NCBI GenBank assembly: GCA_023213195.1
Contig: CP096135.1
Coordinates: 946,616 to 1,010,615 of the forward strand
Reading direction: 5' to 3'
Length of the DNA stretch: 64,000 bases
DNA from: Sphingobacteriales bacterium JAD_PAG50586_3
GTDB lineage: Bacteria; Bacteroidota; Bacteroidia; CAMBQF01
The notes below the pieces were generated by a model. The model was not told the DNA's origin, made no database searches, and saw only the letters and a list, made by a program, of their open reading frames with translations. The translations under genes were made by a program, and so were the position numbers. Below are positions 20,693 to 61,538 of the stretch, piece after piece; within the stretch, counting starts at the first letter, position 1, and every line of letters begins with the position of its first letter.

Positions 20693-22137
20693 CTATTTAC
20701 CGCGACCTAACGAGAAAGCGTCTTTGCCATCAAAAGTGCAAAGGTTTTCTGTTTTAATAAAGTCGATACCGGCATCGGCAAGGCGGCCTAAAAGACCTGC
20801 AATTGCTTTGTGGCTGGTAGTAGAATCAGACAAGTAACGAACCACAAAATGGTCGGTGCAGAAAGTTTCTACGTTACCGCCCGGCCACACCTCGGTACCA
20901 CGGTTGGTAATTACTTTAAAGGCCAAACCATCGCCATTTAGCGGGGTTAGTTTCTCTACTAACTCAGGCGCAGTGCCGTTGTGGTGGAAGAACACATCAA
21001 CACCAACAGTTTCTTTTTACCTGCGCTTTTGCGTACCACAGGTTTAAGGTTCATTGGGGCTTTAGCAGTAGCGTAGCTAACGGCTTTAAATTTGGTAGGC
21101 TTTTGGCCAACGCGTGCAATAACAGCATCGGCAAACTCCTTAGTACCTACTTTCTCAGTAGATAAACCTTCTTTGAAGATGTCGTAAGTATGTACACCGT
21201 CTTCTAAGGTTTTTAACCATGCGTTGTGAACGTTCTCAGCAGCTTCAGTCTGGCCAATGTGTACAAGCATTTGTACAGCGCCTAACAACAGACCCGATGG
21301 GTTAGCCATATTTTGGCCAGCGCGGCGTGGGGCCGAACCGTGGATAGCCTCGAACATAGCACAGTTAGGGCCTACGTTAGCCGAACCTGCTAAACCAACA
21401 GAACCGGCAATTTGGGCGGCAATGTCAGAAATAATGTCACCGTAAAGGTTAAGCGTAACAATTACGTCGAACAACTCAGGGGTGTCGCTCATTTTGGCTG
21501 AGCCTATGTCAATAATCCAGTGTTCTTTTTCAATTTCAGGGTACTCAGCACCTATCTCGTCAAACACCTGGTGAAACATACCATCGGTTTGTTTCATGAT
21601 GTTGTCTTTAGAGAAACAGGTTACTTTTTTACGGCCGTATTGTTTAGCATATTCAAACGCGTAACGAACGATTTTTTCGCAGCCCGGGCGAGAGATTAGT
21701 TTTAAGCACTGTACAACCTCATCGGTTTGTTGGTGCTCAATACCGGCGTAGGTATCTTCCTCATTTTCACGGATGATAACCAAATCCATATTAGGGTATT
21801 TGGTATCAACATACGGGGCGTAAGCAATGCATGGGCGAATGTTAGCATACAAGCTAAGCATTTTGCGGGTTGTTACGTTTAAGCTTTTGTAGCCACCGCC
21901 TTGTGGGGTTGTAATAGGGGCTTTTAAGAATACTTTGGTACGGCGTAGGCTGTCCCAGGCTTCGGGGGCAATACCGGCAGCATTACCGCTAAGGTAAACC
22001 TGCTCACCAATTTGTATTTCTTCAATTTCAAGTTGTGCACCGGCTGCTTCCATAATGCGCAGGGTGGCATCCATAATTTCAGGACCAATACCATCGCCTT
22101 TAGCAACGGTAATAGGAGTTTTAGTTGACATATCCAA
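20693..22137 (-). CDS. icd: isocitrate dehydrogenase (isocitrate/isopropylmalate dehydrogenase family), two ORF fragments with a frameshift near 21000 (ttcttttt run)
   Basis: NLYGDIISD hallmark motif, GSAPRRAGQNMANP. The C-terminal 100 aa continue in another frame. Confidence 0.75.
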
Positions 22138-22139
22138 TT

Positions 22140-22945
22140 CTTTTAAAATGCGCGCAAATATAGCGGTTTATTGTTTACTACAGTATTTAGTTTCCTTTTT
22201 AAGTCCCCCTCACTCCTTTAGGAGAGGGGGATTTAGGGGTGAGGGAAAGCCACTAAACCCCGCATCGCTGTAAATAAAAGAGCATGTTTTGGACCCTCGT
22301 TTTTAAACTCCCCTACTTTTTAAGCCTGCCCAGACACGAATGTCGTCAGGGGAGGGGTGGCCTTTAGGCCGGGGTGGTTACATCCCTAAAACCCGCATCG
22401 CTGCAAGATAAAGCGCACGTTTTGAACCCTCGTTTACCTCACCCAGCCGCACCCAATTTCCATTGGCTGCGACACCCTCTCCCGGCGGGCGAGGGTAAAA
22501 ACCGATAAGCCCCTCAAAATATCACCTATCTTAAAGCCACAGGGCTGTAAAATTTTTTTCAAAATGAACTTGACATTTTATATTTCTACAGTTTAAAACG
22601 TCCGATAAATCCTCCATCCCGTTTCTTTCAATTTTTGTCAAGTAGTTTACCCCAATTAAAGCCAAGGGGCTGTAAGAAAAAATTGCAAAATGAACCCGTC
22701 ATCCCGAACTTGTTTCGGGATCTATAAATTCACAGAAGCAACATCGAAAATGTAAAGTATCAGGCATAGTTTAGTTGTGCTTGCTAATGTCGACAATTCA
22801 TCTTCGGGACAATAGATTTTTCGTTTTTCATTGTTAGTTTTTAGTTTCCTACAAAGATACAACCCCAGGTACCCGTTTGTCAAGATTAACTTTTAAGTCC
22901 CCTGCTTTTTAAGGGGTAGCCTTTAGGCGTGGTGGTTACATCATT
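22140..22945. repeat. non-coding repeat island 1: mosaic of short dispersed repeat modules (R1, R2, R3) with GC-rich hairpins
   Basis: No ORF over 60 aa. Modules are shared with island 2 (47170-47975) and with 26690-26732. See findings. Confidence 0.6.
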
Positions 22946-22948
22946 TTT

Positions 22949-23575
22949 TTAGCTATTTGATTTGTAGGTAAATTTCAAATTTGCCCAATCTGTCTCAGCC
23001 TCAACTGAATAACAAATTCCATTAAGATATGCATAAGTAGTTTTATTTCCATTTGGTAAATACATTACATACCTATTGTTGCCAGCGTTTTTTATAGGTA
23101 TCATTCGTTGAAATTTTTCAGAAAAGATAGAGTTCACATTTACAGGTTCATAAAAATAAAGGCATGCAGTTGTTAAGAGTATGGGATTATTGATAAAACC
23201 GTTATGGCCATTTTTATCAAAGCAACTATAAAATCTTCCATTCCAGGTTATGAGATTATTTACTTCTACTTTATTATTTGTTGTTCGATATAATTTTGCC
23301 TCTTGCAAAATATTCTTATTAAATTTCACGCTCATCTTATCATAAAATTTTATATTAAATAACAAGAGGTTCACTCTTGCATTCGATTCAAAAAAATACT
23401 CTGTAACATCATTATTTGTACTTTTTATAATGTGTATTTCACCAATTGCTTCATTACCTTTTGTAATTGTGTAGGTTAGGTTCTTTCTGTTATTTATATA
23501 GCTTGAAGCTTCTGCGAATTGAAAATTCATAATGCAGATTAAAAGCAGGATTATAATGTTTTTTAATTGTCTCAT
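22949..23575 (-). CDS. hypothetical secreted protein (AT-rich)
   Basis: 208 aa with signal peptide. No recognisable motif. Confidence 0.4.
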   Translation of the reverse strand: MRQLKNIIILLLICIMNFQFAEASSYINNRKNLTYTITKGNEAIGEIHIIKSTNNDVTEYFFESNARVNLLLFNIKFYDKMSVKFNKNILQEAKLYRTTNNKVEVNNLITWNGRFYSCFDKNGHNGFINNPILLTTACLYFYEPVNVNSIFSEKFQRMIPIKNAGNNRYVMYLPNGNKTTYAYLNGICYSVEAETDWANLKFTYKSNS

Positions 23576-23618
23576 GATTTCATTGTTTTTATTGGTTTAT
23601 AATGATTTATTTGTGTGT

Positions 23619-24598
23619 TTAAATGTTTTTTACTGTATATTTATCTGTGAAGTATATAATTGCGTCTTTAATTGCATCCTCAACCGGAGTATATTCTAAT
23701 TCCAATTCTGAAATAGATTTTTTGTTTGTATAGAAATTGTCAATACAAAGTATTTTCATATTTGTACTGCTTATGCTTGTTTTAATTTTACAAAACCTTA
23801 AAACGTCGCCTAAATACCCAATTCCTATTAATATTTTTTTTGGGATTTTTAACATTAAAGGGCGTTGATTAGTGATGTTATTTAGTTTTCTAAAAAAATC
23901 AACATAACTAAGATTTTCATTTACAATAAGATAGTTTGCTCCATATTTCTCTTTGGATAAGCTCAAAATGATGCCCTTAGCCACATCTTTAACATGAACA
24001 AAATTTTTCCCGCCTGACGGATAAAATATTATTTTCTTTTTCCAACCCATTAAAATTATTTTACCAGAACTTGGCTTTGTATCAAATGCTCCAAGCATAA
24101 AACCCGGATTTATAATTATTACATTTATCTTGTCTTGGTGCTGTAACAGATTTTTTCAGCTTCCAATTTACTTTGAGCATAAAAGGAAGATTGGAATGGC
24201 GATTTTATTTTACTTTTTTCTGTTCCTAAATCATTTAATGAGCCAAATCCCAATGTGTTTGCTGTGCTTACAAAAACAAATGTTTTTACTTTACAAAGAA
24301 TGGCGGTATTTTGGAATTGTGAGGTAGCATTACAATTGATTTTCCAATAATCCTTATAGTTGATTATGTTCTGACTTGTTTCTGCGGCAATATGAATAAC
24401 AGTATCTACATCTTTTAGAATCAGTGTAAAATCATCAAACAAATCCCCTTCAATTAGTTCTAAATTGGGATGTAATGGCCCTTCAAATTTTGATTTGTTA
24501 CGTATTAATCCTTTTACATAATATCCTTTTTCTAACAAATCAAATGCAAGGTTCGTACCTAGTAGTCCATTAATGCCTGTTACAAATACTTTTTCCAT
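23619..24598 (-). CDS. NAD-dependent epimerase/dehydratase-family protein (extended SDR), two fragments with a frameshift near 24100-24125
   Basis: N-terminal Rossmann VFVTGINGLLGTNLAFDLLEKGYYV. The C-terminal half is in another frame. Confidence 0.55.
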
Positions 24599-24599
24599 A

Positions 24600-25391
24600 T
24601 TAAATTTCTCTTTTGATTGCATTTGTCATTAAAGGCAATCTTATCCAGATGGGTAAAAGTTTTAAAAGTGCATAGCTGAAAGGGTTCACCATAATTACAG
24701 TGTCTTTTCTAAATAGTTGTTGAATACAATATTTAGCCACTTTTGCAGGATCTAGCAATGTTAATTTCCCCAGTAACCCTTGTTTTTCTATCCTAGCTTT
24801 TACCTCATTATTTGTTTTCATTGCTCCCGGGTTTACAACACTTACAGATACAATGGAGTCTTTAAGTTCTTCAGATAACCCTCTGGTAAAGGAATGAATG
24901 AAACTTTTTGAGGCGGGATATACAGTCTTGTAACCAATGGGCGAAAAAGCTGCCATACTTGATACATTCAGAATATATGATTCTGTTTGTTTCATTAGAT
25001 TGGGCAGTAACTTATGGGTAATTATGGAGGTTGCCACCACGTTTACCTGCATAATCGTATTGATATAATTTACATCGGCATCTATAAATTTTTTAGTGCC
25101 ACCTACTCCAGCATTATTGATTAGAATATTAATGTTAAAGTGCTTATTTAGCCAGTCGGTGAGGGCTATTACATTTTGGGTTTGAGCCAAATCCGTTTCG
25201 TAATAATAGGTTTTCACACCATATCTGGTAGCTGTTTCGGCAGCTAAAATGGAAATGCTTTCATTTGGCAGACTTACCAGAATGACATTTATTTTTCTGG
25301 TAGCCAACTCTGTTACAAAAGCCTTACCCAATCCTTGGCTGGCTCCGGTTACTATCGCAAATGTTTCTTTTGTTTGAACTTCTGCTTGCAT
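24600..25391 (-). CDS. SDR-family short-chain dehydrogenase/reductase
   Basis: FAIVTGASQGLGKAF… NAG…, YPASK catalytic motif. Confidence 0.8.
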   Translation of the reverse strand: MQAEVQTKETFAIVTGASQGLGKAFVTELATRKINVILVSLPNESISILAAETATRYGVKTYYYETDLAQTQNVIALTDWLNKHFNINILINNAGVGGTKKFIDADVNYINTIMQVNVVATSIITHKLLPNLMKQTESYILNVSSMAAFSPIGYKTVYPASKSFIHSFTRGLSEELKDSIVSVSVVNPGAMKTNNEVKARIEKQGLLGKLTLLDPAKVAKYCIQQLFRKDTVIMVNPFSYALLKLLPIWIRLPLMTNAIKREI

Positions 25392-25523
25392 AAACTTAAA
25401 TTTTATGAAGCAAAAGTATAATGAGCATAGAGCCTGAATGCTCTGGTTTATAACAGTGAACGCATTGAATTAAGTTTGTAACCTAATGGTAATAAATACT
25501 TTACATAAACCCTATGGGTGAGT

Positions 25524-26630
25524 TTATAAGGTTGAACTGCTTTTCTTGAATTCTGATGGAGTTTGATTGGTCAACTTCTTAAACGTAGTATTAAAAGCTG
25601 TTTTGGAATTAAAGCCCACCTCAAAGGCTATACCCAGTATTGAATATTGATCCATTTTTGAACTAAGCAGCAGTAATTTGGCTTCCTCAATTCTGTACTT
25701 ATTAATAAAATTGAAAAAATTTAAATTGAAGCCGGAGTTAATGATGTAGGATAATTTGTGAGTAGTTGTGCCAAATAATTCCGCAAGTTTTACTAAAGTA
25801 AGCTCAGAATCAAGATAGGGCTTTTGGCTGAGCATAAATTGAGTTAATTGTGCTTTTAGGTTAACTAATTCTTCATCCGATATAATCTTCTTTTTAGCAT
25901 CACTAACTTCAATTTCATCGCTCAAGGATATAATTTCTTCAATGGCTTTTTCTTTAAAAGGGTAGATTTCCTTTTGCCTCAATGAATGAAAAGCAGTATA
26001 ATAAATTATCAGGAGGCTTAAAATATTCATAATCAGGTCTAATCGCTCCAAACTAAAAAGAATATTGTAAAAGATAACTGTTATGACTATCAAAAGAATC
26101 GCAATAATGATCCTTTTAAGCTAGGAGAGATCAATTTCCATTTTTTGAGAAGAATACATCATAACAACCTTTTGGTGCTTTCTTACTTTGTAATAAGAAG
26201 CCAGAGTATAGAAGAGTGTCTGGCTAAGCATCAAAAAAATAAGTATATAGTTAATAGTCAGGGAATTTGACTTGGCAAAGAAATAAAGTAAAATAATGTA
26301 ACCAATGGGGAGAATGAGATGTTGCGGGATTGCCTTTTTAAATTTGAAGCTTGGATTAGAATAAAATACAACGGTAAAATAAAACAGAATTGGTGTAAAG
26401 TATTGCACGCCCCTTAATAACAGTTGCCAATTTTGGTTTAGCTCTACACCGTAAACAAGAAATACTATTTCATCTACCCAGAAAAATGCCCACAGAAGAA
26501 AATATACTCCAAGCAATCGGTTAGCAATTTTGTTTACCTTAAATATATTAACCTGATTCAAAAATGAAAGCAGCATTAGTGAACCAAAGTTTAAAATCAC
26601 AAACAAAGAAGCTAATTTGTCAAATATCAT
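25524..26630 (-). CDS. AraC-family HTH transcriptional regulator with an N-terminal multi-TM sensor domain, interrupted by an in-frame TAG (26121-26123)
   Basis: C-terminal AraC HTH (…LAELFGTTTHKLSYIINSGFNLNFFNFINKYRIEEAKLLL…GFNSKTAFNTTFKKLTNQTPSEF). The upstream 169-aa TM ORF is in the same frame through the TAG. Confidence 0.5.
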
Positions 26631-26832
26631 ATTTTATTACTTTGTGTTGCCGAACTTAATTTTTTCATTACGTATCATCGGGGTGAGGCCCTACAAAGAT
26701 ATAACCCACTACCCCTTTGTCAAGAATAAGTTCCGCTCTTTATTTAAATTAAACCCTTTACCCCCTTATCTGTTTGTGGTATTGCGCTCTGGCAATTGCA
26801 CGTTGCAAATGCCTACCTTTGCACCCTATATA

Positions 26833-27563
26833 TGGCAAATAACCCACCTGTAAAACCGTACGATAACCCCAACCTTACTAAGAAAGAAGAGGTTGCCCTT
26901 ATGTTTGATACCATATCGGGCCGGTACGATTTTATGAACCGATTTTTATCCCTAGGCATTGATAAGCTGTGGCGCCTTAGGCTTCTTAAAAAACTACGCA
27001 AGCAAAATCCTGAAAATGTGTTAGATATAGCCACCGGCACTGCCGATTTGGCCATACTGGTATCTAAACACGCTAAAAACGTTATTGGGGCAGATATATC
27101 GGAAGGTATGCTGGCCGTAGGGCGAGAAAAGGTTGCCAAGCGCAAAATTACCAATGTTACCCTGCAATATGGCGATAGCGAAAACCTACCCTTTGCCGAT
27201 AATACCTTTGATGCCATTACCGTAGCCTTTGGGGTGCGTAACTACGAGAACCTTGAAAAAGGCCTTGCTGATATGCTACGTGTATTAAAGCCCGGCGGCA
27301 TGGTTTATGTATTAGAATTTTCGCGCCCGCGCAAGTTTCCTGTAAAGCAGGCATACTTTTTTACTTTAACAACGTTTTACCCCGATGGGGCAAAGTTTTG
27401 TCAAAAGACACATCGGCATACACGTATTTACCCCAATCGGTAAAAGCCTTTCCTGATGGCGAAGACTTTACGGCTATATTAGAAAAATGTGGCTTTACCG
27501 AAACTAAATTTGATTTTTTGAGTAATGGCATTGCCGCCTTGTATACGGCAGTAAAGAAATAAA
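26833..27563 (+). CDS. ubiE: demethylmenaquinone / ubiquinone C-methyltransferase UbiE/MenG, with a frameshift near 27350-27440
   Basis: SAM-MTase motif VLDIATGTADLA plus UbiE signatures. The true C-terminus (…FPDGEDFTAILEKCGFTETKFDFLSNGIAALYTAVKK*) is in another frame, ending at 27563. Confidence 0.75.
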
Positions 27564-27569
27564 TACCGT

Positions 27570-28288
27570 TTGAAACGAATAATAGCCATACTAGTAAGTC
27601 TGTTACTTGTGTTGGGGCCGCTAAGCGCCCAGCGACGCGAGATTATAAAGAACTTGCCTAAATACGACAGGCAGGTTATTCACTTTGGCTTTATTTTGGG
27701 TATGAATACCATGAACTTTGTGGTAAAGCAAAACCCCAACATCAAATCGTACGACTCTGTATACGTGGTTGAAACCCAAGGCGAAACAGGTTTTTCGCTG
27801 GGCATCGTGTCTAACCTGCACATTGGCAATAACTTAGACTTACGTTTTCTTCCCGGCCTGTCATTCGGTACACGCAATATAGAATACACCCTGCGTACGC
27901 ATTTTAACGGTACTGCCACACAAACCCCGTTTGTAAAAAAGGTAGAGTCTACCATCCTGGAGTTTCCATTGTTAATGAAGTTTAAATCTAACCGCTATGG
28001 CAACATGCGGGCCTATATTATTGGCGGCGGCAGGTACTCTTTAGACCTTGCATCGCAAGCCAAGGTGGTTGATGAGGGCAAGCAAACCATTAAGTTATAC
28101 CGTAGCGATTATATGTGGGAACTGGGCTTTGGGTTCGATTTTTACCTGAGTACTTTAAGCTATCGCCCGAAATTAAGGTGGCCTATGGCTTTAGAGATTT
28201 GCTAAAACGAGAAGACCACCTCTTTAGCCAAAGTGTAGATGCCTTACGCTCTAAGACAATCTATTTCTCTTTAACGTTTGAATAGCCT
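27570..28288 (+). CDS. outer-membrane beta-barrel (porin-like) protein, with a frameshift near 28160-28200; true C-terminus …IYFSLTFE*
   Basis: Signal peptide followed by alternating beta-strand pattern. The 3' end is read in another frame through 28288. Confidence 0.5.
28221..28288 (+). repeat. direct repeat copy A (~68 bp, ~94% identical to 29313-29380)
   Basis: ctttagccaaagtgtagatgcctt[a/g]cgctctaagac[a/c]atctat[t/c]tctctttaacgtttgaata. Coincides with the 3' end of the OMP gene. Confidence 0.7.
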
Positions 28289-28316
28289 TACAAACAAATT
28301 ATTGCCCACGGCAGAC

Positions 28317-29228
28317 CTATTCTACCACCAATTTTTGGCTATAAATAATACCCTTATGGTTAATACAAACCGTGTAAAGTCCGCTAGGGTATTGACTAAA
28401 TAATAATCCATCTGGTTGAACCTGCTTAGTTTCTACCAGCCTGCCTTGCATATCATAAATATGGATGATAACCACATCGTTAAATGGGGGTTTTACCATA
28501 AAAGAGCCCAACGTGGGATTAGGGTAAATTAATACCGGACTTTTATTGGTTTCTTTAATTATTGTAAGAAAAGGATTACATGGGCGCTCATCAGGGGCAT
28601 TCCAAAACCCAATTTGTGCACAATCGCTATAACAGATTAGCTTGCGCGGTATAGCTATATTTTCAGGTAAGTAATATTGAGGAAACAAGAATGTTTCAGC
28701 ACCTAATTTGTCATACACCTTAATAACATCCATGTTATCAGGGGTTAATCCAAAACCGTAAGCAGAAGGGTATTTATTTCGTATAAATAAAACCCTAAGC
28801 GTATCATTATTAATAACCTCATACCCTGTAGAATCCACATAAACCGTAATGGTGTCTACAAAAGGCAAAGATGTATAATACGTTGGTGTTACCCATGTGT
28901 CGCCGGGTGCAGCATTAAAATTATATAAAATTGAATATGTGCCTTGGGGCGACCTCCAAAATATGGTATCACCTCCCATACTTTCATACAAGTAAATAAT
29001 TTTGCTTCCATCTACTATTTTAGTTACCGTTCTATTTATAACAGAATCATAAACAACATTAGTAGGGTAGCAAGTAATTGTTTTATCAAAAATCATGGTG
29101 TCTTCTTCAAATACACTTTTACATTTATACGTCCAGCTGCTTGGGGCGGGGGCAAAATGTTGTGCAGTAGCATTTGCCCATATTAGTAATAATAAGCCAA
29201 AAGCTATTTGTTTTAAGTATGCTATCAT
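28317..29228 (-). CDS. T9SS C-terminal sorting-domain (Por_Secre_tail) protein of unknown function
   Basis: Signal peptide. C-terminus IYPNPTLGSFMV…IHIYDMQGRLV…GLYTVCI…KLVVE is a canonical T9SS CTD. Confidence 0.7.
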   Translation of the reverse strand: MIAYLKQIAFGLLLLIWANATAQHFAPAPSSWTYKCKSVFEEDTMIFDKTITCYPTNVVYDSVINRTVTKIVDGSKIIYLYESMGGDTIFWRSPQGTYSILYNFNAAPGDTWVTPTYYTSLPFVDTITVYVDSTGYEVINNDTLRVLFIRNKYPSAYGFGLTPDNMDVIKVYDKLGAETFLFPQYYLPENIAIPRKLICYSDCAQIGFWNAPDERPCNPFLTIIKETNKSPVLIYPNPTLGSFMVKPPFNDVVIIHIYDMQGRLVETKQVQPDGLLFSQYPSGLYTVCINHKGIIYSQKLVVE

Positions 29229-29312
29229 GTTATCAGCATTAATGTTGTGTAAAGCTACGTTGTTGATATAGCTACTGCAAAAACATTAAATCGTATTTAT
29301 CGGATAATGTAC

Positions 29313-29380
29313 TTTAGCCAAAGTGTAGATGCCTTGCGCTCTAAGACCATCTATCTCTCTTTAACGTTTGAATAAAAAAG
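29313..29380 (+). repeat. direct repeat copy B, followed by an intrinsic terminator (29383-29412)
   Basis: Duplicated 3' end fragment of the 27570 OMP gene (encodes …YFSQSVDALRSKTIYLSLTFE*), followed by aagcccctgtttccaggggctttt. Confidence 0.7.
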
Positions 29381-29425
29381 CCCCTGTTTCCAGGGGCTTT
29401 TGCGTAGTATCTTACTAAAAGGGTA

Positions 29426-31471
29426 TTACCACATTTTAGCGCGTTGGTCTACCGGACGGAATAGTTTATCGCCGGGTTTAATACCAAAGGCATCGTAAAA
29501 CTCACCCATATTGGTAACCACACCGTTTACACGGAATTTACCCGGAGAGTGTGGGTCGGTATACAACTGCTCACGTAAAGCCTCTGGGCGGGCATGGCCC
29601 CTCCATATTTGCGCTAACGATAAAAAGAAACGTTGGTTTGGAGTAAAACCATCTATTTTATCGTTGTTTTTGTTGTTCATTTTAAAGGCTTCAAAAGCAA
29701 TAGTACAGCCACCCAAATCGGCTATGTTTTCGCCCAAGGTAAGCTCGCCGTTAATGTGTACACTATCTAACGGAAAGTATGCGTTGTATTGGTCTACAAA
29801 CACCTTGGTAAGGGCTTTGTATTTAACGGCATCTTCAGGGCTCCACCAATCTGTAAGGTTTCCGTTGGCATCAAACTGGCGGCCTTGGTCGTCAAAACCA
29901 TGGGTAAGCTCGTGGCCTATAACCATACCTATGCCACCGTAGTTAATGGCATCATCGGCATGCTCGTTAAAGAAAGGAGGTTGCAATATAGCGGCAGGGA
30001 ACACAATCTCATTAATAGTAGGGTTGTAGTAGGCATTAACCTCTTGCGGACCCATTAACCATTCTGTTTTATCTACCGTTTTGCCCAGTTTGCTTAGGTT
30101 ACGTTTTTGCTCATTTACAAAGCCTGCCTGTAGGTTATACCACCAGTGGCCATCATTCATTTCAAGGCCTTTATACTCTAACCATTTATCAGGATAACCT
30201 ATTTTGGTTATTATTTTAGCCAGTTTTTCTTGTGCTTTTTTCTTTGTTTCGGGGCTCATCCAGGTAAGCGCGTCAATGCGTTTAGCAAGGGCGGTGCGTA
30301 GGTTCTTCACCAAATCATCAGCACGTTTTTTAGCGTTTTCAGAGAATTTCAGCTTAACATATTCTTCGCCCACAATATCGCGCATAATGTAGCTTGTGTT
30401 GTCTACAACAAACTTCCAGTGCGGCTCCATTTTTTCGCGGCCATTCATAAACTTGCCATAAAAATCAAAGCGGGCAGTAGCAAAGTTTTTGCTTAGGTAT
30501 TTAGCGTTATCGTTAACAATATGAAAGCGCAGGTATGTTTTCCAATCGGTTGCAGGAATGGTTTTTAAATATCCGTCTAAGGCTGCAAAAAACTTAGGCT
30601 GGCTTACAACCACTTGTGGGTTATTATCAGGTATGCCTGATAGTTTAAAGAACAATGCCCAGTCTAAATTTTTGTTTTGCTTAATCCAGTCGGCAGTAGC
30701 TACGGGGTTATATACCGCGTAAGGGTCGCGTTGCTCTACAAGGGTCATTTGGGCCTTGGCCAGCTTCTCGTCTACACCATAAACGGTAGCGGCATTTTTA
30801 GCAGCATCAGCCGGGGTTTGGCCTTGCAGTTCAAATATTTTTTGAATGTACTCTTTGTATTTTTTGCGGGTTTCTTCAGACTTTCCATCGGTACGGAAGT
30901 AGTAATCCCTCTCTGGCAAACCAATGCCTGCCTGGCTAAGGTATAATGTATACGTATCAGATTTTTTCAAATCCTGGTCTACATACATACCAAAAAAACC
31001 GGTGTTTGTAAGTTTAGCCATAAGGCGGGCGTTGCTTTGCGGGGTGCCAAAGCTATCTGCAGCCGCTAACCAGCCTTTAAGGGGGTTTATGCCCTCTTTT
31101 TCAACCAGGTTAGTGTCCATGGCAGAGCGGTAGTAAGCACCCAGCAGCTGGGTGTTGCTGCCTTTTTCGGCATCTTTATTTTTACCGGCATTTTCTAAAA
31201 CGGTAAGGGTAGCTTTTTGGCTTTGCTCATCAAGCTCGTAAAAAGCGCCCCACTTGCTTTTGTCGCCCGGTATGGGGTTGGCTTTAATCCATTTAGAGTT
31301 TACAAACTCAAAAAAGTCGTCGCCGGGTTTGTGGGTAGAGTCTAACAGGGCAATATCAAAAGGGTTAACTTTATCAGTGCCGGCAGTAGCCTCTTTAGGC
31401 CCGCACGATTGAAGTAATGAGCCCGCAGACAAAAAGCCTACTGCGGCTAACAGGTAAACTGTTTTTTTCAT
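29426..31471 (-). CDS. M13-family zinc metallopeptidase (neprilysin/PepO-like)
   Basis: 681 aa. VIGHELTHGFD (HExxH) and downstream ENIADLGG motifs. Signal peptide/lipoprotein N-terminus. Confidence 0.85.
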   Translation of the reverse strand: MKKTVYLLAAVGFLSAGSLLQSCGPKEATAGTDKVNPFDIALLDSTHKPGDDFFEFVNSKWIKANPIPGDKSKWGAFYELDEQSQKATLTVLENAGKNKDAEKGSNTQLLGAYYRSAMDTNLVEKEGINPLKGWLAAADSFGTPQSNARLMAKLTNTGFFGMYVDQDLKKSDTYTLYLSQAGIGLPERDYYFRTDGKSEETRKKYKEYIQKIFELQGQTPADAAKNAATVYGVDEKLAKAQMTLVEQRDPYAVYNPVATADWIKQNKNLDWALFFKLSGIPDNNPQVVVSQPKFFAALDGYLKTIPATDWKTYLRFHIVNDNAKYLSKNFATARFDFYGKFMNGREKMEPHWKFVVDNTSYIMRDIVGEEYVKLKFSENAKKRADDLVKNLRTALAKRIDALTWMSPETKKKAQEKLAKIITKIGYPDKWLEYKGLEMNDGHWWYNLQAGFVNEQKRNLSKLGKTVDKTEWLMGPQEVNAYYNPTINEIVFPAAILQPPFFNEHADDAINYGGIGMVIGHELTHGFDDQGRQFDANGNLTDWWSPEDAVKYKALTKVFVDQYNAYFPLDSVHINGELTLGENIADLGGCTIAFEAFKMNNKNNDKIDGFTPNQRFFLSLAQIWRGHARPEALREQLYTDPHSPGKFRVNGVVTNMGEFYDAFGIKPGDKLFRPVDQRAKMW

Positions 31472-31675
31472 GTGTAAAGATTGGTTAATGCAAAAGTAAC
31501 TAAGGTTTGCAAGGTTAGTATATGTATGGGGTAAATAATTACACGAAGCCTACAATGGGATAGCAGTACTTATGTGCAACAAGCAGTATTTTTAGTTAAT
31601 AACCCCAAAATACACCGCCGCTATTTATATAATCAACTGAAAATCAATATTAAAAATAAAAAAACCGCCCCACTA

Positions 31676-47169: not shown

Positions 47170-47975
47170 ATCTGTTGCCAAATGTAGTTATTTTAACTTT
47201 TAAAGGTCTCCCTTTCCAAAGGGAGTGGCTGGCGCCTTGGCGCCAGACGAGGGATTTAATGTCGTTGTCAAAATCCCCGGCTCTTCGAGCCACCCCTTTA
47301 AAAGGGCGACCTAAACCCTTGCGGCTGTAAGATAAAGCACACGTTTTGAGCTCTCCTTCCGTACCCCCTCCTAACCTCGCGTTGCTCGGTTTCTCCTCCC
47401 CCTACTAATAGGGGAGGTGTCCGCCAGGACTGTGGGGGTAAGAAAACCCGCATGGCTGTCCCAAAGGGATGCCTTCGGCACAAGATAAAGCGTACGTTTT
47501 GAGCCCCAACTATATACCCTCTTGAGAGGGGTGGCAAAGCAACGCTTTGACGGGGTGTGTATTGTAACGTTCCAATCCCTACAGGCGGTAGTAAAATATA
47601 TCATTTCTGCTCATCGTTTTTTTTAACTCCCCTACTTTTTAAGGAGGGGTAATTCTGACTGGTAAGTCAGAATGGGGTGGTTACCTTAAACCCCTACAGG
47701 CGGTAGTAGAAAAATGTGTTTCTGCGCACCATTTATAGGTGCAAATACATGGGTTGACTTAAAGTAAAACTTTAACTCAAAAAATTTTAAAGATCTCCCT
47801 TTCAAAAGGGAGTGGATTCCGATGATAATCGGAAGACGAGGGATTTCGGCAGGCATTAGTTATAGTTTTTACAAAGATACAACCCCGAATACCCCTTTGT
47901 CAAATTAAAATATACACACTACATTAGAACACAGAAACACCTGCCTTTTATAGTATGTAACATGATACTGCAAAC
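47170..47975. repeat. non-coding repeat island 2: mosaic of modules R1 to R6
   Basis: No ORF over 80 aa. Shares R1, R2 and R3 with island 1 and R5 with 35326-35395. Internal duplicated R4 and R6 modules. Confidence 0.6.
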
Positions 47976-49230: not shown

Positions 49231-50868
49231 ATGAATATACGTTTACTTCTGTTTCTTGCTTTACTTGGTGTTAGTGCCCGTTCTTTTAGTCAGTGTGCTG
49301 AAAATCCGCAGCCTAAGGTGCTGTTGGTGGGCGACTCGTGGGCGTTTTTTATGAGTGTTGACCAAACCATTAACACCGTGTTTAGCAAATGGGGCCACAG
49401 CGATTGCACCTTTTATACTAACATTACCCTTGCTGAAAACGGTGCCGAAACGGACGACTTTTTAACGCCTGCCAAGCAAAACGAGATTTTGGCTAAGCTG
49501 GATGAATACCCATCAATAGAATTCATCCACCTGAGTATTGGCGGAAACGATGCCCTGGGCGATTGGAACATTAACTACACCCAAGGCCAAACCGACACGC
49601 TGATTGAAGATATATCGCAACGGTTGTTAGATGTTATTACCTTTATTAAAACCGCCCGCCCCAACATTAAAGTGTTTTGGAGTGGCTATGTATACCCCAA
49701 TTTTGGTGAGGTTATAGAAACATCATTCTTAGGCGAAAACCACCCGTTTTTTGGTACGTGGGATGGTATGGGCCAGCCTACCTTTCAGCAGATTAATGAC
49801 ATTTTAAATGTATTCTCTCACCGTGCTGAGGTGTATGCCGATACAACAGACAATGTAGATTATGTTAGCTGCCCGGGTTTGTTGCAGTATACTTTTGGTC
49901 AGCCCGACCCGTTAGGGGTTGCCCCCGGTGGCAGCTATGCTGCTTTCACACAGCCTTTGCCCTTTGGCGACCCATCGTACCCATCGCCTAAAGAGTCTAT
50001 GCGCGATTATGGGCTTACCAAAGATTGTTTTCACCTTTCGCCGCGCGGCTACCGCGATTTTATTGGCTACCACACCCGCAAGTTTTATCACAAAGCCCTT
50101 ATGCACGATTTTTATGCCGTTGCCGATTCTATTGAGTTGAATGGCTCGCTAAGCGCCAATGGTAGCGTGTCTGACCTATTAAAGCTGGGCGAGTTGGATA
50201 GTGGCAATTATGCATCGCTGCTTACCTTTAACCTTGCCACTATGGCCGATACGGGCATTACCAAGGCATCGCTGTTCATTCGTCGTGAAGAGTTGGCGGG
50301 CGCAACACCGGTAAACGGTGCTATGCAGGTAAAAATAAAAGCAGGCTATTTTGGTGGTAGTATATTATTAGAAACAGCCGATTTGCTTGCCCAACCATCT
50401 ACCCAGGGCGCGCCCTGCATTTTTGGGGCTAACCAGGAAAATGGCGATTGGGTAAGGCTTGAGCTGCCTGAGTATTTCTACCCTTACCTGCAAACAGGCA
50501 ATACTGTACAGTTTATTCTGGAAGCACCAACAGCTACAGGGTCTATACTGTTTAGCAATGCTACAGAGCCTGATTTTGCCCCTGTTTTAGACATTACCTA
50601 CGGTCCTAAAACGGTTTCGGTGGTTGAGGTTAAAAATGATGTATTGGTTGATATATACCCAAACCCCACCACAGGCTTGCTAAACATAAATACTACATTG
50701 GATTTGACCAACACTACCATACAAATACACGATATTACCGGCAGGCTAATGCTAAGCACAGTATTAACGGGCACAACGGTTGATGTTGCTGCCTTACCTG
50801 CGGGCATATACTCGCTACAGCTAATAACCCCTAAGGGCACGTTTAATAAGAAGATTGTAAGGAATTAG
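49231..50868 (+). CDS. SGNH/GDSL-family hydrolase with a T9SS C-terminal sorting domain
   Basis: GDSWAFF block I. C-terminal …IYPNPTTGLLNI…IHDITGRLM…GIYSLQL… is a Por_Secre_tail. Confidence 0.65.
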   Translation: MNIRLLLFLALLGVSARSFSQCAENPQPKVLLVGDSWAFFMSVDQTINTVFSKWGHSDCTFYTNITLAENGAETDDFLTPAKQNEILAKLDEYPSIEFIHLSIGGNDALGDWNINYTQGQTDTLIEDISQRLLDVITFIKTARPNIKVFWSGYVYPNFGEVIETSFLGENHPFFGTWDGMGQPTFQQINDILNVFSHRAEVYADTTDNVDYVSCPGLLQYTFGQPDPLGVAPGGSYAAFTQPLPFGDPSYPSPKESMRDYGLTKDCFHLSPRGYRDFIGYHTRKFYHKALMHDFYAVADSIELNGSLSANGSVSDLLKLGELDSGNYASLLTFNLATMADTGITKASLFIRREELAGATPVNGAMQVKIKAGYFGGSILLETADLLAQPSTQGAPCIFGANQENGDWVRLELPEYFYPYLQTGNTVQFILEAPTATGSILFSNATEPDFAPVLDITYGPKTVSVVEVKNDVLVDIYPNPTTGLLNINTTLDLTNTTIQIHDITGRLMLSTVLTGTTVDVAALPAGIYSLQLITPKGTFNKKIVRN

Positions 50869-56486: not shown

Positions 56487-58944
56487 ATGCAGAGAACCAG
56501 ACAAACATGGTTGTTGCCTCTGCTAATTATTGTATTACACGCTTTACAGGCCGATGCCCAAACGCCTGTTGATTCTTTAAAACCCAATTACATTAACCCC
56601 ACCCAATATGAGGTTGGCGGCATTGATTTTGTTGGCCTTAAACGGCACAAGAAAGATGTGTTGCTGTCTATTATTGGCCTGCGCGTTGGCGACAAGGTAG
56701 AGGTGCCTAGCGAAAAGCTGGCCGACATTATTGACTACCTATGGAAACAAAACCTGTTTAGCGATATTAAACTCAACGTAGACAGCATTGTTGAGGGTAA
56801 GATTTACCTAGCTTTTCAGGTAGAGGAAATTGCCTACCAGGCCGGGCCGGTTAAGCTAAATGGCATTAGCAGGGCCGAAGCAAACAAGCTATCAACCAAA
56901 CTCAAACCCTATGCAACAGGCACTATTAGCCAACAGCATATTCTTTCCATAACCACCCTTATTACCAATTATTATAAAGATAAGGGGTATTACAACGTGT
57001 TTGTAAGTACCCGCCAACTGCCCGCAAAGGTTGATACCAATATGGTACAGCTTGTTGCTGATATTACAACAGGCCCAAGGGTAAAAATCAATAGTATAGA
57101 TATTGTGGGCAACAGGGCAGTGGCCGATACTAAGCTGCGCCGGGTGATGAAAGACACCAAAGAGCGGCGTTGGTTCAACATCTTTAAAACATCAAAATAC
57201 AATGCCGAAGCCTATACTAAAGATAAGCAGCGCATAATAGATTACTACAACCAACTGGGCCACCGCGATGCTGAGGTGGTTAAAGACAGTGTTTACCTGT
57301 TCAGCCCCAAGCGGTTAAACATCAGCATTACTATAGATGAGCATAAGGTATATTACTATGGCAATATAACATGGGTGGGCAACACCAAATACAGTACCGA
57401 TACCCTGAATCGTGTGCTGGGTATAAAGCCTGGCGAGGTGTACGACAAAAGCAAGCTGAACGAAGCCTTGTATATGAATGCTGCGGGAAACGATATTACA
57501 TCGCTATACATGGATAATGGCTACTTGTTTTTTAATGTAACACCAGTAGAGACAGGCCTTAATGGCGATAGTATTAACCTGGAGATGCACATTTACGAAG
57601 GGAAACCTGCCACCATTGGCGGCATAAGCATAAAAGGCAACACCCGCACGCAAGACCATGTAATTCTGCGTGAGGTATATACCAAGCCCGGCCAGTTATT
57701 TAAGCGCAGCGATATTATACTAAGCCAACAGGCATTAATACGGCTTGGCTATTTTAACCCCGAAGCCTTGCAGGTAAACCCCATACCCAATCCTGCAAAT
57801 GGCACTGTTGACATTGAATATGTGGTAGAAGAAAAACCCACCGACCAGATACAGCTATCGGGGGGCATTGCGGCGGGTAAAATTGTGGGTACACTGTCGT
57901 TGGTGATGAATAATTTTTCGTTTAAAAGCATAGGCAAAAAAGACCGATGGCAGCCGCTCCTTCTGGCGATGGGCAGCGAGTAGCATTAAGCGCGCAAAGC
58001 AACGGGGCCTCATTTCAATCGTACAGCCTTAGTGTAACAGAACCGTGGTTGGGTGGTAAAAAACCGAACTCGCTTACGGGCAATGTGTTGTACAACGCGC
58101 AACGGTACGATAGTAACCGAAAGTTTAGCGCCTTGGGTTTCACGGTAGGCTTGGGCAACCGCTGGAAAAAGCCCGATAACTTCTTCAGCTCGTTCTACAC
58201 CATCAACTTTTATAAATACAAGGCCGATAGCTTTCCCGGAATTGATTTTAATGGCGACAGGTACGATGTTAATGTGGGTGTAAGCGTATCGCGCAGTTCG
58301 TTAGATGGTAAGGATTATCCAATGGAAGGCTCATCGTTTACCCTGGGGTGCAGGCAACGCCTCCGTGGTCGGGCAGCAGGTCTTTTACCGCGCAAAACCC
58401 ACCCAAAATGGTAGAGTACCACAAATGGAATTTTGATGCCCTTTGGTACCAAAAAATAGTAGGCAAACTGGTATTTAAAGCATCAGCAGCCGTGGGGTAT
58501 TTGGGCTACTACAACAAAAAACTGGGCCTTGCGCCGGTAAACCGCTTTTATATGGGCGGGGTGCAACTGGCTGCAACCAGCTTTGTAGGGCAGGAGTACA
58601 TTAATATGCGGGGGTACGAGAATGGAAGCCTGTCGCCCACGGGAGGCAGTGCGCTATACAACCGTTTTGTGCTGGAACTGCGCCACCCTATTTTGCTAAA
58701 ACCCGAAGCCGGGGTTAGCATTTATGGCCTTGCCTTTGCCGAGGCGGGCAATGTGTGGAGTGGAGTAAAAGACTATAACCCATCGGTACTAAAACGTTCT
58801 GTCGGGGCGGGCGTTAGGGTGGTGGTGCCTATGTTTGGGCTTATTGGGGTAGATGCGGGCTATGGTTTCGACACAAAATCAATACCCGGATATAGTGGAA
58901 ACCCGTGGCAATTCCACTTTGTTATAGGGCGTGATATCAAATAA
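56487..58944 (+). CDS. bamA: outer membrane protein assembly factor BamA, copy 1 (three fragments, two single-G/T homopolymer frameshifts near 57950 and 58345)
   Basis: Signal peptide, POTRA repeats, C-terminal Omp85 barrel ending …NPWQFHFVIGRDIK. Confidence 0.8.
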
Positions 58945-59019
58945 AGCGTATTTTTGCAATATTTTTAAAAATTCTGCGTTTACCTAAACCGTAAAAGCAA
59001 CTGGAACACAAGCCATAGA

Positions 59020-61538
59020 GTGAAGAAATTATATACAGCGCCAAAGTATTTTAAACAAATAGTTTTAGGCCTTTTCCTTTTATTAACCGTAGGCGCAAAC
59101 GCCCAAATTACCATTGGTGGCGACTCTATTATTGTAGACTATGCCAGCCCTACAGAATATGAAATTGCGGCCATCACGGTAGATGGTGTTCAGTTTTACG
59201 ATAAAGGCATTATCGTAATGCTATCGGGCCTTAGCCATTGGCGATAAGATTGATATACCCGGTGATAAGCTTTCTACAGCCATTGAAAACCTTTGGAAAC
59301 AGGGCCTTTTCGGCAATATTGAAATTATAGCTGATAAAATAGAGGGCAAAAAAATATTCCTGCGCTTAAAACTGGAAGAAAGGCCGCGCCTATCAAGCTT
59401 CGCGTTTAAAGGCATACCCCGTTCTGAAGCCGATAAGCTGCGCGATAAGATTAAGCTGATACGTGACAAGGTGGTTAACGATGAGCTTATTATTTCTACC
59501 CAAAACCTGGTTAAAGAATATTACAGGGATAAAGGCTATTACGATGCCGAGGTTAACATTACCCAAACCCCCGATACCTCTAATGCCAACAAGGTTGTGC
59601 TTTTCATCAACGTAAAGCAAAACAACAAAATCAAGATTAATAAAATCAATATTATTGGCAACAGCATGGTGGCCGATGCCAAAATACGCCGCCAGTTAAA
59701 AGACACCAAAGAGAAAAAGTGGTACAGCCTGTTTTCTACCTCTAAGTTTATAGAGGAGAATTATAAAAAGGATAAGCAGAAGATAATTGACCTGTATAAC
59801 GAGCAGGGCTTTAGGGATGCTACCATTGTTAAAGACACCGTTTACCGTTACGATAATAAAACGCTGAACATTGATATTGTGGTAGAAGAAGGCCGTAAGT
59901 ACTACTTCCGCAACATTACATGGGTGGGCAATACCAAATACTCTTCAGACACACTTAACCGTGTATTGAACATTAAAAGGGGCGATGTTTATAACCAGGC
60001 TACCTTAGAGGGGGCCTTGTTCACCAGCCAAAACGGTACCGATGTATCATCGTTGTACATGGATATGGGTTACCTTTTCTTTAACGTTACCCCTGTAGAG
60101 GTTGCCGTAGTGGGCGACTCTATAGACTTTGAAATGCGCATGTACGAAGGCCGCCCTGCCACCATTAATAAGATTACCATTGTTGGCAACACCAAAACCA
60201 ACGACCATGTTATCCTGCGCGAGGTGCTAACCAAGCCGGGCCAGCTTTTCCGCAGGTCTGATATTATTTCAACACAGCGTTTCCTTGCACAGTTAGGCTA
60301 TTTTAACCCCGAGGCTTTGCAGGTAAACCCTAAGCCCGACCCTATAAACGGTACGGTTGATATTGAGTATGTGGTTGAAGAAAAACCATCAGACCAGATA
60401 GAACTTTCAGGTGGTTGGGGTGCAGGCCGTTTGGTAGGCACACTGGGTGTTACCTTCAACAACTTCTCGGCCCGCAATATGTTTAAAAAAGGCATGTGGC
60501 GCCCATTGCCTGCCGGCGATGGTCAGCGTTTATCAATCCGCGGCCAAACAAACGGTATCTTCTTCCAATCATACAACCTGTCGTTTACAGAGCGCTTGGT
60601 TAGGTGGGCGCAAGCCAAACTCATTAACGGTTTCTGTGTTCCATACAGCCCAGTCTAACGGCTACCCAAAATCTGATGTTAACCGTGTAGCCCTGCGTGT
60701 TACCGGAGCTACCATTGGCCTTGGTACACGTTGGAAACGCCCCGACAATTACTTCAACGCTTTTTACAGTGTTAACTTTCAGTACTACGATAACCAAAAG
60801 TATATATCAAGCATTTCAACAAAGTCGTACAGCGCCACGCTGGGCTTCTCGGTATCGCGTAACTCTATAGACCAGCCTATTTACCCACGCGAGGGGTCTA
60901 ACATATCACTATCTGTAAACGCCACACCACCATGGCCGTTGCGTGTTAACGATGGTAAGCTTGGCTTTAGGACATTTGGCGATGATAACGATGCCCGCTT
61001 TAAGTTTGTAGAATACCACAAGTGGAAACTGGATTTAACATGGTACCACGCCCTTGCAGGCAAATTGGTACTTAGCGCCCGTGCCCACTTAGGCTACTTG
61101 GGTTACTATAATAAAGATATTGGCACATCGTTGTTCGAGCGTTTCCAGGTAGGTGGCTCGGGCTTATCTAACTTTAACCTGGTAGGTACAGAAATTGTGG
61201 CCCTGCGTGGTTACCCTGATGGTAGCTTATCGCCTGCCAATAACCAGGGCAGCGCCATGTTCAACAGGTATATTTTAGAGTTGCGCTACCCTGTATCGCT
61301 AAACCCACAGGCTACAGTATTTGGCCTTGCATTTTTAGAGGGCGGCAACACGTGGGATAAAATACGCGACTTTAACCCCTTCAACATTAAACGCTCTGCC
61401 GGTGTTGGTGTAAGGGTGTTTTTACCCATGTTTGGTATGCTTGGTTTAGATTATGGCTATGGCTTTGATAAGATAGACCGCCTTGGCAGCACCCAGCAGC
61501 GTGGCAACATACACTTTATTATAGGCCAGCAGTTTTAA
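59020..61538 (+). CDS. BamA paralog, copy 2 (three fragments, frameshifts near 59240 and 60590)
   Basis: Same architecture. Long identical blocks with copy 1 (e.g. NITWVGNTKYS.DTLNRVL, GYLFFNVTPVE, GNTKTNDHVILREV.TKPGQLF.RSDII, GYFNPEALQVNP.P.P.NGTVDIEYVVEEKP.DQI.LSGG). Confidence 0.75.

Follow-up and report, generated by a model that had tools for sequence, protein, structure and literature searches.

Our analysis of a 64,000-nucleotide stretch of the genome of Sphingobacteriales bacterium JAD_PAG50586_3 (contig CP096135.1, positions 946,616 to 1,010,615; the whole stretch is referred to here as the window, and coordinates are counted from its first letter) reveals that the 3′ end of porT, a gene assigned to the type IX secretion system (T9SS), is present twice, as 63-bp direct repeats that flank a compositionally foreign segment carrying a single gene for a T9SS cargo protein. 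Specifically, the first copy of the repeat completes porT, while the second lies downstream of the cargo gene and is followed by a terminator hairpin of the kind that directly follows porT in one related lineage. The structure is a one-off recombination scar in one genome, and a mobile cassette is not supported. As to its origin, we give about an even chance to a gene swap in which a donor segment carrying its own homolog of the porT 3′ end entered by a single crossover within the 63 bp. The features concerned are the following:

27570 to 28285, plus strand: porT/sprT, the T9SS outer-membrane beta-barrel component, by its match to NF052311.

28222 to 28284, plus strand: repeat copy 1, the last 21 codons of porT, functional and in frame, with stop codon TAG at 28283–28285.

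28286 to 29311, no strand: lineage-specific insert of 1,026 bp, in which the cargo gene lies between a 31-bp spacer and 83 bp of its own upstream DNA.

28317 to 29228, minus strand: predicted T9SS type-A cargo gene of 303 aa, with a signal peptide, an all-beta domain and a C-terminal sorting domain (residues ~234–302).

29229 to 29311, minus strand: region upstream of the cargo gene, presumed from its sequence to be the promoter and meeting copy 2 at its right end.

29312 to 29374, plus strand: repeat copy 2, a non-coding relic of the porT 3′ end that has been displaced; its former stop codon is TAA at 29373–29375.

29376 to 29401, both strands: predicted bidirectional intrinsic terminator hairpin with an 11-bp stem, directly 3′ of copy 2.

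29426 to 31471, minus strand: M13 (PepO-like) peptidase gene with the Pfam domains Peptidase_M13_N and Peptidase_M13, the right-hand neighbour of the slot.

The direct repeat is ungapped and contains three mismatches in its 63 bp (95.2% identity). A search of the window for the 63-mer, allowing up to three mismatches, returned these two sites, versus 0 expected from 100 dinucleotide-preserving shuffles. The base that follows the 63 bp is the third position of the stop codon, where the copies differ (TAG in copy 1, TAA in copy 2), and similarity stops there. A sequence-only reading of this stretch had proposed a 68-bp repeat at 28221–28288 and 29313–29380; the repeat is real, but these intervals are about 4 bp too long and the second is 1–2 bp out of register. 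Its identity value of ~94% is correct for 64 bp, and the peptide that it gave for copy 1 (...FSQSVDALRSKTIYFSLTFE*) is the one obtained by translation. The copies thus differ at four positions when the stop codon is included: copy 1 reads TTA and copy 2 TTG at position 25, and the corresponding pairs are ACA and ACC at position 37, TTC and CTC at position 44 (F>L, the only non-synonymous difference), and TAG and TAA at position 64. Three of the four differences leave the coding meaning unchanged, the stop-to-stop difference among them. An ATG falls exactly at the left junction of copy 2 and opens a 22-codon mini-ORF (open reading frame; MYFSQSVDALRSKTIYLSLTFE*, 29307–29375) in the old porT frame, which is probably fortuitous.

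The gene completed by copy 1 had been labelled porin-like in the sequence-only reading. Its identity as the T9SS component PorT/SprT was overlooked there: the NCBIfam equivalog NF052311 (T9SS_PorT_SprT) is matched at 180 bits against a cut-off of 125 (residues 3–205), and the C-terminal porT fragment matches profile positions 189–239. The gene is split in the window into two ORFs, 27570–28205 and 28115–28285, one G being absent after 28148 (CCTGA in the window, CCTGGA in relatives). The adjoining gene ubiE (26796–27562) is broken likewise, by the shortening of a run of seven T to six at 27357–27362 relative to relatives; icd (20693–22137) and an epimerase gene (23619–24622) are also split, and further apparent splits lie in 56487–61538. 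CP096135.1 is a Flye assembly of Nanopore R9.4.1 reads from a mixed culture, made without short-read polishing, at 115x coverage and a mean read length of 9 kb (PMC9583780). Given such an assembly and the intact reading of both genes in relatives, the ubiE and porT frameshifts are consensus errors and not pseudogenes; porT is thus intact, and copy 1 is its working 3′ end. Once repaired, PorT has 238 aa and shares 94% identity with intact homologs. Indel-split genes probably inflate the published count of 4,869 coding sequences per 4.16 Mb. The source strain is placed in the uncultivated order AKYH767.

To define what adjoins porT elsewhere, we gathered 25 related loci from genomes and metagenomes with the repaired PorT as anchor, at 71–94% PorT identity, the closest relative being 94% identical. 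(A metagenome scan with PorT gave one truncated contig, which was uninformative.) Every related locus that shows DNA past porT has the same order: icd (minus strand), ubiE and porT (plus strand), one or two genes with LamG and CHU_C domains (minus strand), the M13 peptidase gene (minus strand), and a major facilitator superfamily (MFS) transporter gene (minus strand). The genes in the slot between porT and the peptidase gene are type-B (CHU_C) T9SS cargo, convergent to porT, with a guanine-plus-cytosine (GC) fraction of 0.44–0.46, equal to that of their flanks. None of these loci, where DNA past porT is seen, has the window's cargo gene or a second porT 3′ end, and the arrangement in the window is unique among the sampled genomes. 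A tblastn search of the window for a LamG/CHU_C homolog gave 0 matches, excluding a move of that gene to another place within it. The peptidase gene is syntenic in those relatives whose contigs reach that far. Because every relative with DNA past porT holds LamG/CHU_C cargo in the slot, the comparison of gene order identifies the window's structure as a replacement, specific to its lineage, within a slot conserved for cargo; it is not that of an insertion between two genes with no occupant of their own.

The LamG/CHU_C cargo itself varies among relatives (L001/L017/L018, 2752–4400; L011, 7718–10930; L019, L020, and L024), being present in one copy or two tandem copies. In the L001 lineage it is broken in two, LamG (393 aa) and CHU_C (129 aa), and this lineage alone has a terminator between porT and the cargo gene.

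The hairpin at 29376–29401 identifies copy 2 as the resident end of porT. It folds at −18.3 kcal/mol on the plus strand and −19.3 kcal/mol on the minus strand (z-scores −4.5 and −5.2), 0 of 200 shuffles fold as well, and U-runs flank it on both strands (UUUU on the plus strand, UUUUUUAUU on the minus strand). A simple terminator scan did not pick it up; it was seen by folding against shuffles. Folding of the locus revealed no comparable hairpin after copy 1, which runs through its TAG straight into non-homologous DNA. In L001, L017, and L018, a hairpin identical at 25 of 26 positions directly follows the porT stop codon (TAA), bearing out the suggestion of the sequence-only reading that the terminator after the second copy had once belonged to the outer-membrane protein gene; in L001 the same hairpin is then followed by LamG/CHU_C. 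Copy 2 and the hairpin together are collinear with the L001 porT end and hairpin over 90 nt at 92% identity and are thus the resident porT end, displaced by 1,090 bp. In the L011 and L002 lineages, porT ends in TAG and lacks a terminator. The predicted terminator was formerly that of porT and would now serve only the M13 peptidase gene. It may also be a hybrid of the porT and peptidase terminators formed by a deletion between them; the 25-nt spacer is too short and too diverged to tell.

The insert is foreign in composition. Its GC fraction is 0.357, versus 0.431–0.441 for ubiE, porT, and pepO, and the GC fraction at third codon positions is 0.30 for the insert, versus 0.45–0.54; among the related loci, it has no significant nucleotide similarity to the slot of any relative. 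Its one gene, intact and on the opposite strand to porT, had been read as encoding a secreted protein with a T9SS C-terminal domain, and a type-A Por_Secre_tail domain was indeed found. The sorting domain scores 39.6 bits with PF18962 and 45.7 bits with TIGR04183, and the N-terminus is hydrophobic. An AlphaFold (AF2) model built with 41 family members has a mean predicted local distance difference test score (pLDDT) of 82.7; the modelled C-terminal domain (CTD) resembles the T9SS-bound CTDs 8glk_D and 8qb1_A, while structure comparison of the all-beta N-terminal domain gave no informative match. By its signal peptide and its Por_Secre_tail (TIGR04183) with CTD fold, the protein is a predicted type-A T9SS cargo. 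An exhaustive HMMER search places it in a large family whose proteins have ~300 aa and of which 123 representatives match at E ≤ 1e-10, with 25–35% identity, overturning the impression of an orphan gene given by a word-indexed search, which found only 2 relatives. The two closest relatives found (55% and 27% identity; P0002 and P0003) have unrelated neighbours, without porT, repeats or shared flanks.

The 55% homolog (L008, 317–1234) likewise has low GC, 0.351 versus 0.44–0.46 in its flanks; the low GC of this cargo subfamily reflects either repeated acquisition from low-GC donors or an intrinsically AT-rich composition. The 83 bp upstream of the window's cargo gene (29229–29311) were considered as a remnant of the ancestral LamG-gene promoter, and the idea was dropped: the local alignment was matched by 25 of 300 shuffles and is not significant. 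A second type-A T9SS cargo gene is present in the window at 49231–50868; it combines a GDSL-lipase-like domain with a Por_Secre_tail and has only the sorting domain in common with the cargo gene studied here.

The gene swap to which we give an even chance would have begun with the loss of LamG/CHU_C in the window's lineage, leaving porT, the terminator, and the peptidase gene. A low-GC donor segment of ~1 kb, carrying one type-A cargo gene and its own last ~63 bp of porT, would then have entered by a single reciprocal crossover within the 63-bp homology, of the Campbell or "ends-in" type, promoted by RecA or by a site-specific recombinase acting in trans. Through copy 1, porT would have stayed complete and retained its C-terminal beta-strand, while the resident 3′ end and terminator would have been pushed those 1,090 bp downstream, the hairpin still terminating the peptidase gene. 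The new cargo gene would converge on porT as the ancestral cargo did, and porT would be left without a terminator of its own, facing the cargo gene directly, as porT does in lineages L002 and L011. That porT is intact agrees with selection for an event by which its 3′ end is restored. The succession of these steps, an intermediate of circular or ends-in form, and a porT end brought by the donor are inferred. The donor arrangement would read porT ...TTA...ACA...TAG, then GCCTTACAAAC...; the 63-bp repeats would permit homologous pop-out of the insert, and its circular form would read ...GGATAATGTA-[63-mer]-GCCTTACAAAC... There is no indication that the segment is still mobile.

The states of the two copies at the positions where they differ are suggestive of two alleles. 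At positions 25, 37, and 64, copy 2 agrees with L001. Copy 1, which is nearest to the L011–L014 lineage (59 of 63 positions), agrees with L011/L002 at positions 25 and 64. With copy 2 taken as ancestral, three of the four changes would have fallen in the ~13 synonymous sites of copy 1, and not among the 64 positions of copy 2 that are free to vary (p ~ 0.016); with all four changes placed in copy 2, the chance of at least three being silent is ~0.03.

Several points weigh against the gene swap. The substitution pattern discriminates at p ~ 0.016–0.11 depending on the assumed polarity, with four sites only, and when changes are allowed in both copies the silent excess is not significant (p ~ 0.11). 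TTG>TTA and TAA>TAG are the sole silent options at positions 25 and 64, so that agreement with L011 there is partly forced. The Thr codon (ACx) common to both copies and L011, and the private T at position 49, present in both copies and in 0 relatives, fit a duplication made in place equally well. For recombination by RecA, a homology of 63 bp is short. Two events or more are required, the loss of LamG/CHU_C and then the integration. The donor arrangement, porT-TAG-insert, was not found in any genome or metagenome searched; neither was the empty intermediate, porT-TAA-hairpin-peptidase, which occurs in 0 of the 25 related loci, a weak negative as no relative exceeds 94% PorT identity.

Duplication in place is the main rival, if a doubtful one: foreign DNA would have been inserted illegitimately at a break in the porT 3′ end, 63 bp would have been copied locally by fill-in of a long staggered break or by template switching during replication, and the copies, identical at first, would then have drifted. 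The substitutions point both ways. The T at position 49 and the ACx codon are derived states that both copies hold and that occur together in no relative, and the F>L difference, the sole non-synonymous one, lies in non-coding copy 2, as neutral decay predicts; yet equal neutral rates predict more change in copy 2, which keeps the L001 state at three of the four positions (p ~ 0.016–0.03). That the silent-site excess lacks significance once changes are allowed in both copies, and that the donor allele is absent from the genomes and metagenomes searched, suits such an origin. Four differences per 64 bp imply an old event, yet the GC of the insert is unameliorated. No known transposition or repair pathway typically yields a target duplication of 63 bp; those of insertion sequences (IS) and transposons are 2–15 bp.

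An unlikely alternative is a dedicated mini-element without its own integrase, of the kind of a cis-mobilizable element (CIME), in which the 63 bp would be the attL and attR sites of a recombinase encoded elsewhere and cargo cassettes would target the porT 3′ end. The geometry is that of elements which integrate into the 3′ end of a gene and restore it, with direct repeats at both ends of which one, copy 1, completes the target gene. The foreign composition of the insert suits this account, as does the slot beside porT, which holds cargo in every lineage, variable in content and copy number. Other features of such elements are missing. No integrase or transposase was found among the 30 window ORFs scanned, in agreement with the sequence-only reading, and the insert codes for the cargo gene alone; no terminal inverted repeats are present at the insert ends; the 63-mer has no further site in the window, each of the 25 related loci has one porT 3′ copy, and 0 viral contigs carry the 63-mer or the cargo gene family. 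Further, the slot genes of the relatives are LamG/CHU_C paralogs passed on vertically, their GC native and their flanks free of repeats, and the 55% and 27% homologs of the cargo gene lie in other contexts without shared flanks. The comparison of the flanks to attL and attR in the sequence-only reading therefore stands as to geometry, with the gene 3′ end on both sides of a 1-kb foreign insert, while the "tiny integrative element" is not supported: a recombinase among the window ORFs, an empty site, and recurrence, by which an integrative element or CIME would be recognised, were not found. Nor were the inverted repeats, transposase, and 2–15 bp duplication of a transposon or IS. It is very improbable that freshwater Bacteroidota use the last ~63 bp of porT as a dedicated attachment site at which they exchange T9SS cargo cassettes without an integrase of their own, by a recombinase encoded elsewhere; were it so, genes for secreted proteins would be placed beside a gene of the secretion machinery in a modular and reversible manner.

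Also improbable is a tandem duplication of porT and its terminator after which foreign DNA replaced the first terminator and nearly the whole second porT, sparing only its last 63 bp. It would account for a direct repeat with the native terminator on the second copy, and slot cargo genes do duplicate in tandem in relatives; it needs a duplication, a two-ended illegitimate replacement, and the loss of LamG/CHU_C, and no other remnant of a second porT lies within 28286–29311. A chimeric join of two strain variants in the unpolished Nanopore/Flye metagenome assembly is scarcely credible: the culture was mixed and the assembly is rich in errors (frameshifts in icd, the epimerase gene, ubiE, and porT), but these are single-base indels and not rearrangements, both junctions join unique sequence, and at 115x with mean reads of 9 kb, single reads span the whole 1.1-kb structure, making its misassembly unlikely.

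If the gene swap is the correct account, the locus is a clean natural example of an exchange that keeps an essential gene intact through a duplicated 3′ end. It also points to a slot for T9SS cargo that is conserved beside porT while the gene in it can change, and, should empty or circular forms exist, would give a handle on the exchange of secreted-protein repertoires in uncultivated freshwater Bacteroidota. It is a single historical event in one genome, and its chief use is in annotation: porT would be read as intact, copy 2 as a relic, and the terminator as that of the peptidase gene.

The region around ubiE and porT shows further variation. A 4.56-kb low-GC island (22177–26741; GC 0.26–0.38 versus ~0.44) lies between icd and ubiE and is not in L001–L003, which have only ~10 bp at that gap; it encodes a DUF6134 protein, an epimerase, a short-chain dehydrogenase/reductase (SDR), and an AraC-type regulator with a membrane N-terminus. 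In L015, the icd-ubiE gap is occupied by two T9SS cargo genes. With the island to the left of ubiE and the swapped slot to the right of porT, both sides of the ubiE-porT pair are variable. A motif, TACAAAGATAYAACCC(N4-8)CCNTTTGTCAA, occurs at three sites in the window (22848–22892, 26690–26732, and 47856–47908), versus 0 expected by chance; two of its copies form direct repeats of ~45 bp (82% identity) on either side of most of the low-GC island, and two copies lie 70–110 bp upstream of plus-strand genes. The motif could be a regulatory site or could mark insertion ends. Clustered non-coding repeat units of 25–50 bp are common to two intergenic regions 25 kb apart (22253–22435 and 47310–47734); the units at 22.2–22.9 kb and 47.3–47.9 kb were checked as candidate tRNAs or known RNAs, with no tRNA and no Rfam family match.

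To the right, synteny with all relatives breaks at ~31510–31540, just past the start of the M13 peptidase gene, forming a second breakpoint 2 kb from the repeat; beyond ~31540, the window has rpsO and pnp, and the relatives have the MFS transporter gene and a 484-aa gene. Similarity to the relatives also changes along the locus: icd (20700–22137) is closest to the L001 lineage (94%, versus 87% for L011), ubiE and porT are equally near L001 and L011 (~88–89%), and the peptidase gene (29426–31471) is closest to L002/L003 (86%, versus 81–85%). The mosaic, as read from these identities, suggests past recombination among the L001, L002, L003, and L011 lineages around the slot.

The structure can be set beside four known systems. 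CIMEs and genomic islets in the 3′ ends of protein genes, such as the CIMEs related to ICESt1 and ICESt3 in fda of Streptococcus thermophilus, likewise have a short direct repeat equal to the target gene 3′ end, a gene restored by the element-proximal copy, and no recombination module between the repeats; the structure here differs in being without a known cognate integrase or full-length relative, in its 63-bp repeat with four differences, and in its single copy in one genome, with one T9SS cargo gene as content and no empty site seen among related loci. The target-site duplications of transposons and IS also place direct repeats of the target at the flanks of an insertion, but are 2–15 bp long, whereas the duplication here is 63 bp, with non-identical copies and without inverted repeats or transposase. 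Campbell-type integration, as of suicide plasmids, predicts homology duplicated around the incoming DNA, repeats that are donor/recipient hybrids, and reversal by pop-out; here, in contrast, the event would be natural, the homology 63 bp only, and the circle one of ~1.09 kb of unexplained origin. In the ubiE/menG-porT(sprT) pair of Bacteroidota, ubiE adjoins porT and T9SS cargo converges on porT, as in the related loci that extend past porT, whereas in the window an unrelated type-A cargo has taken the place of the LamG cargo of type B (CHU_C) that is otherwise conserved. The structure belongs with the known recombination scars that restore the 3′ end of a gene, and the conserved cargo slot beside porT is a modest extra.

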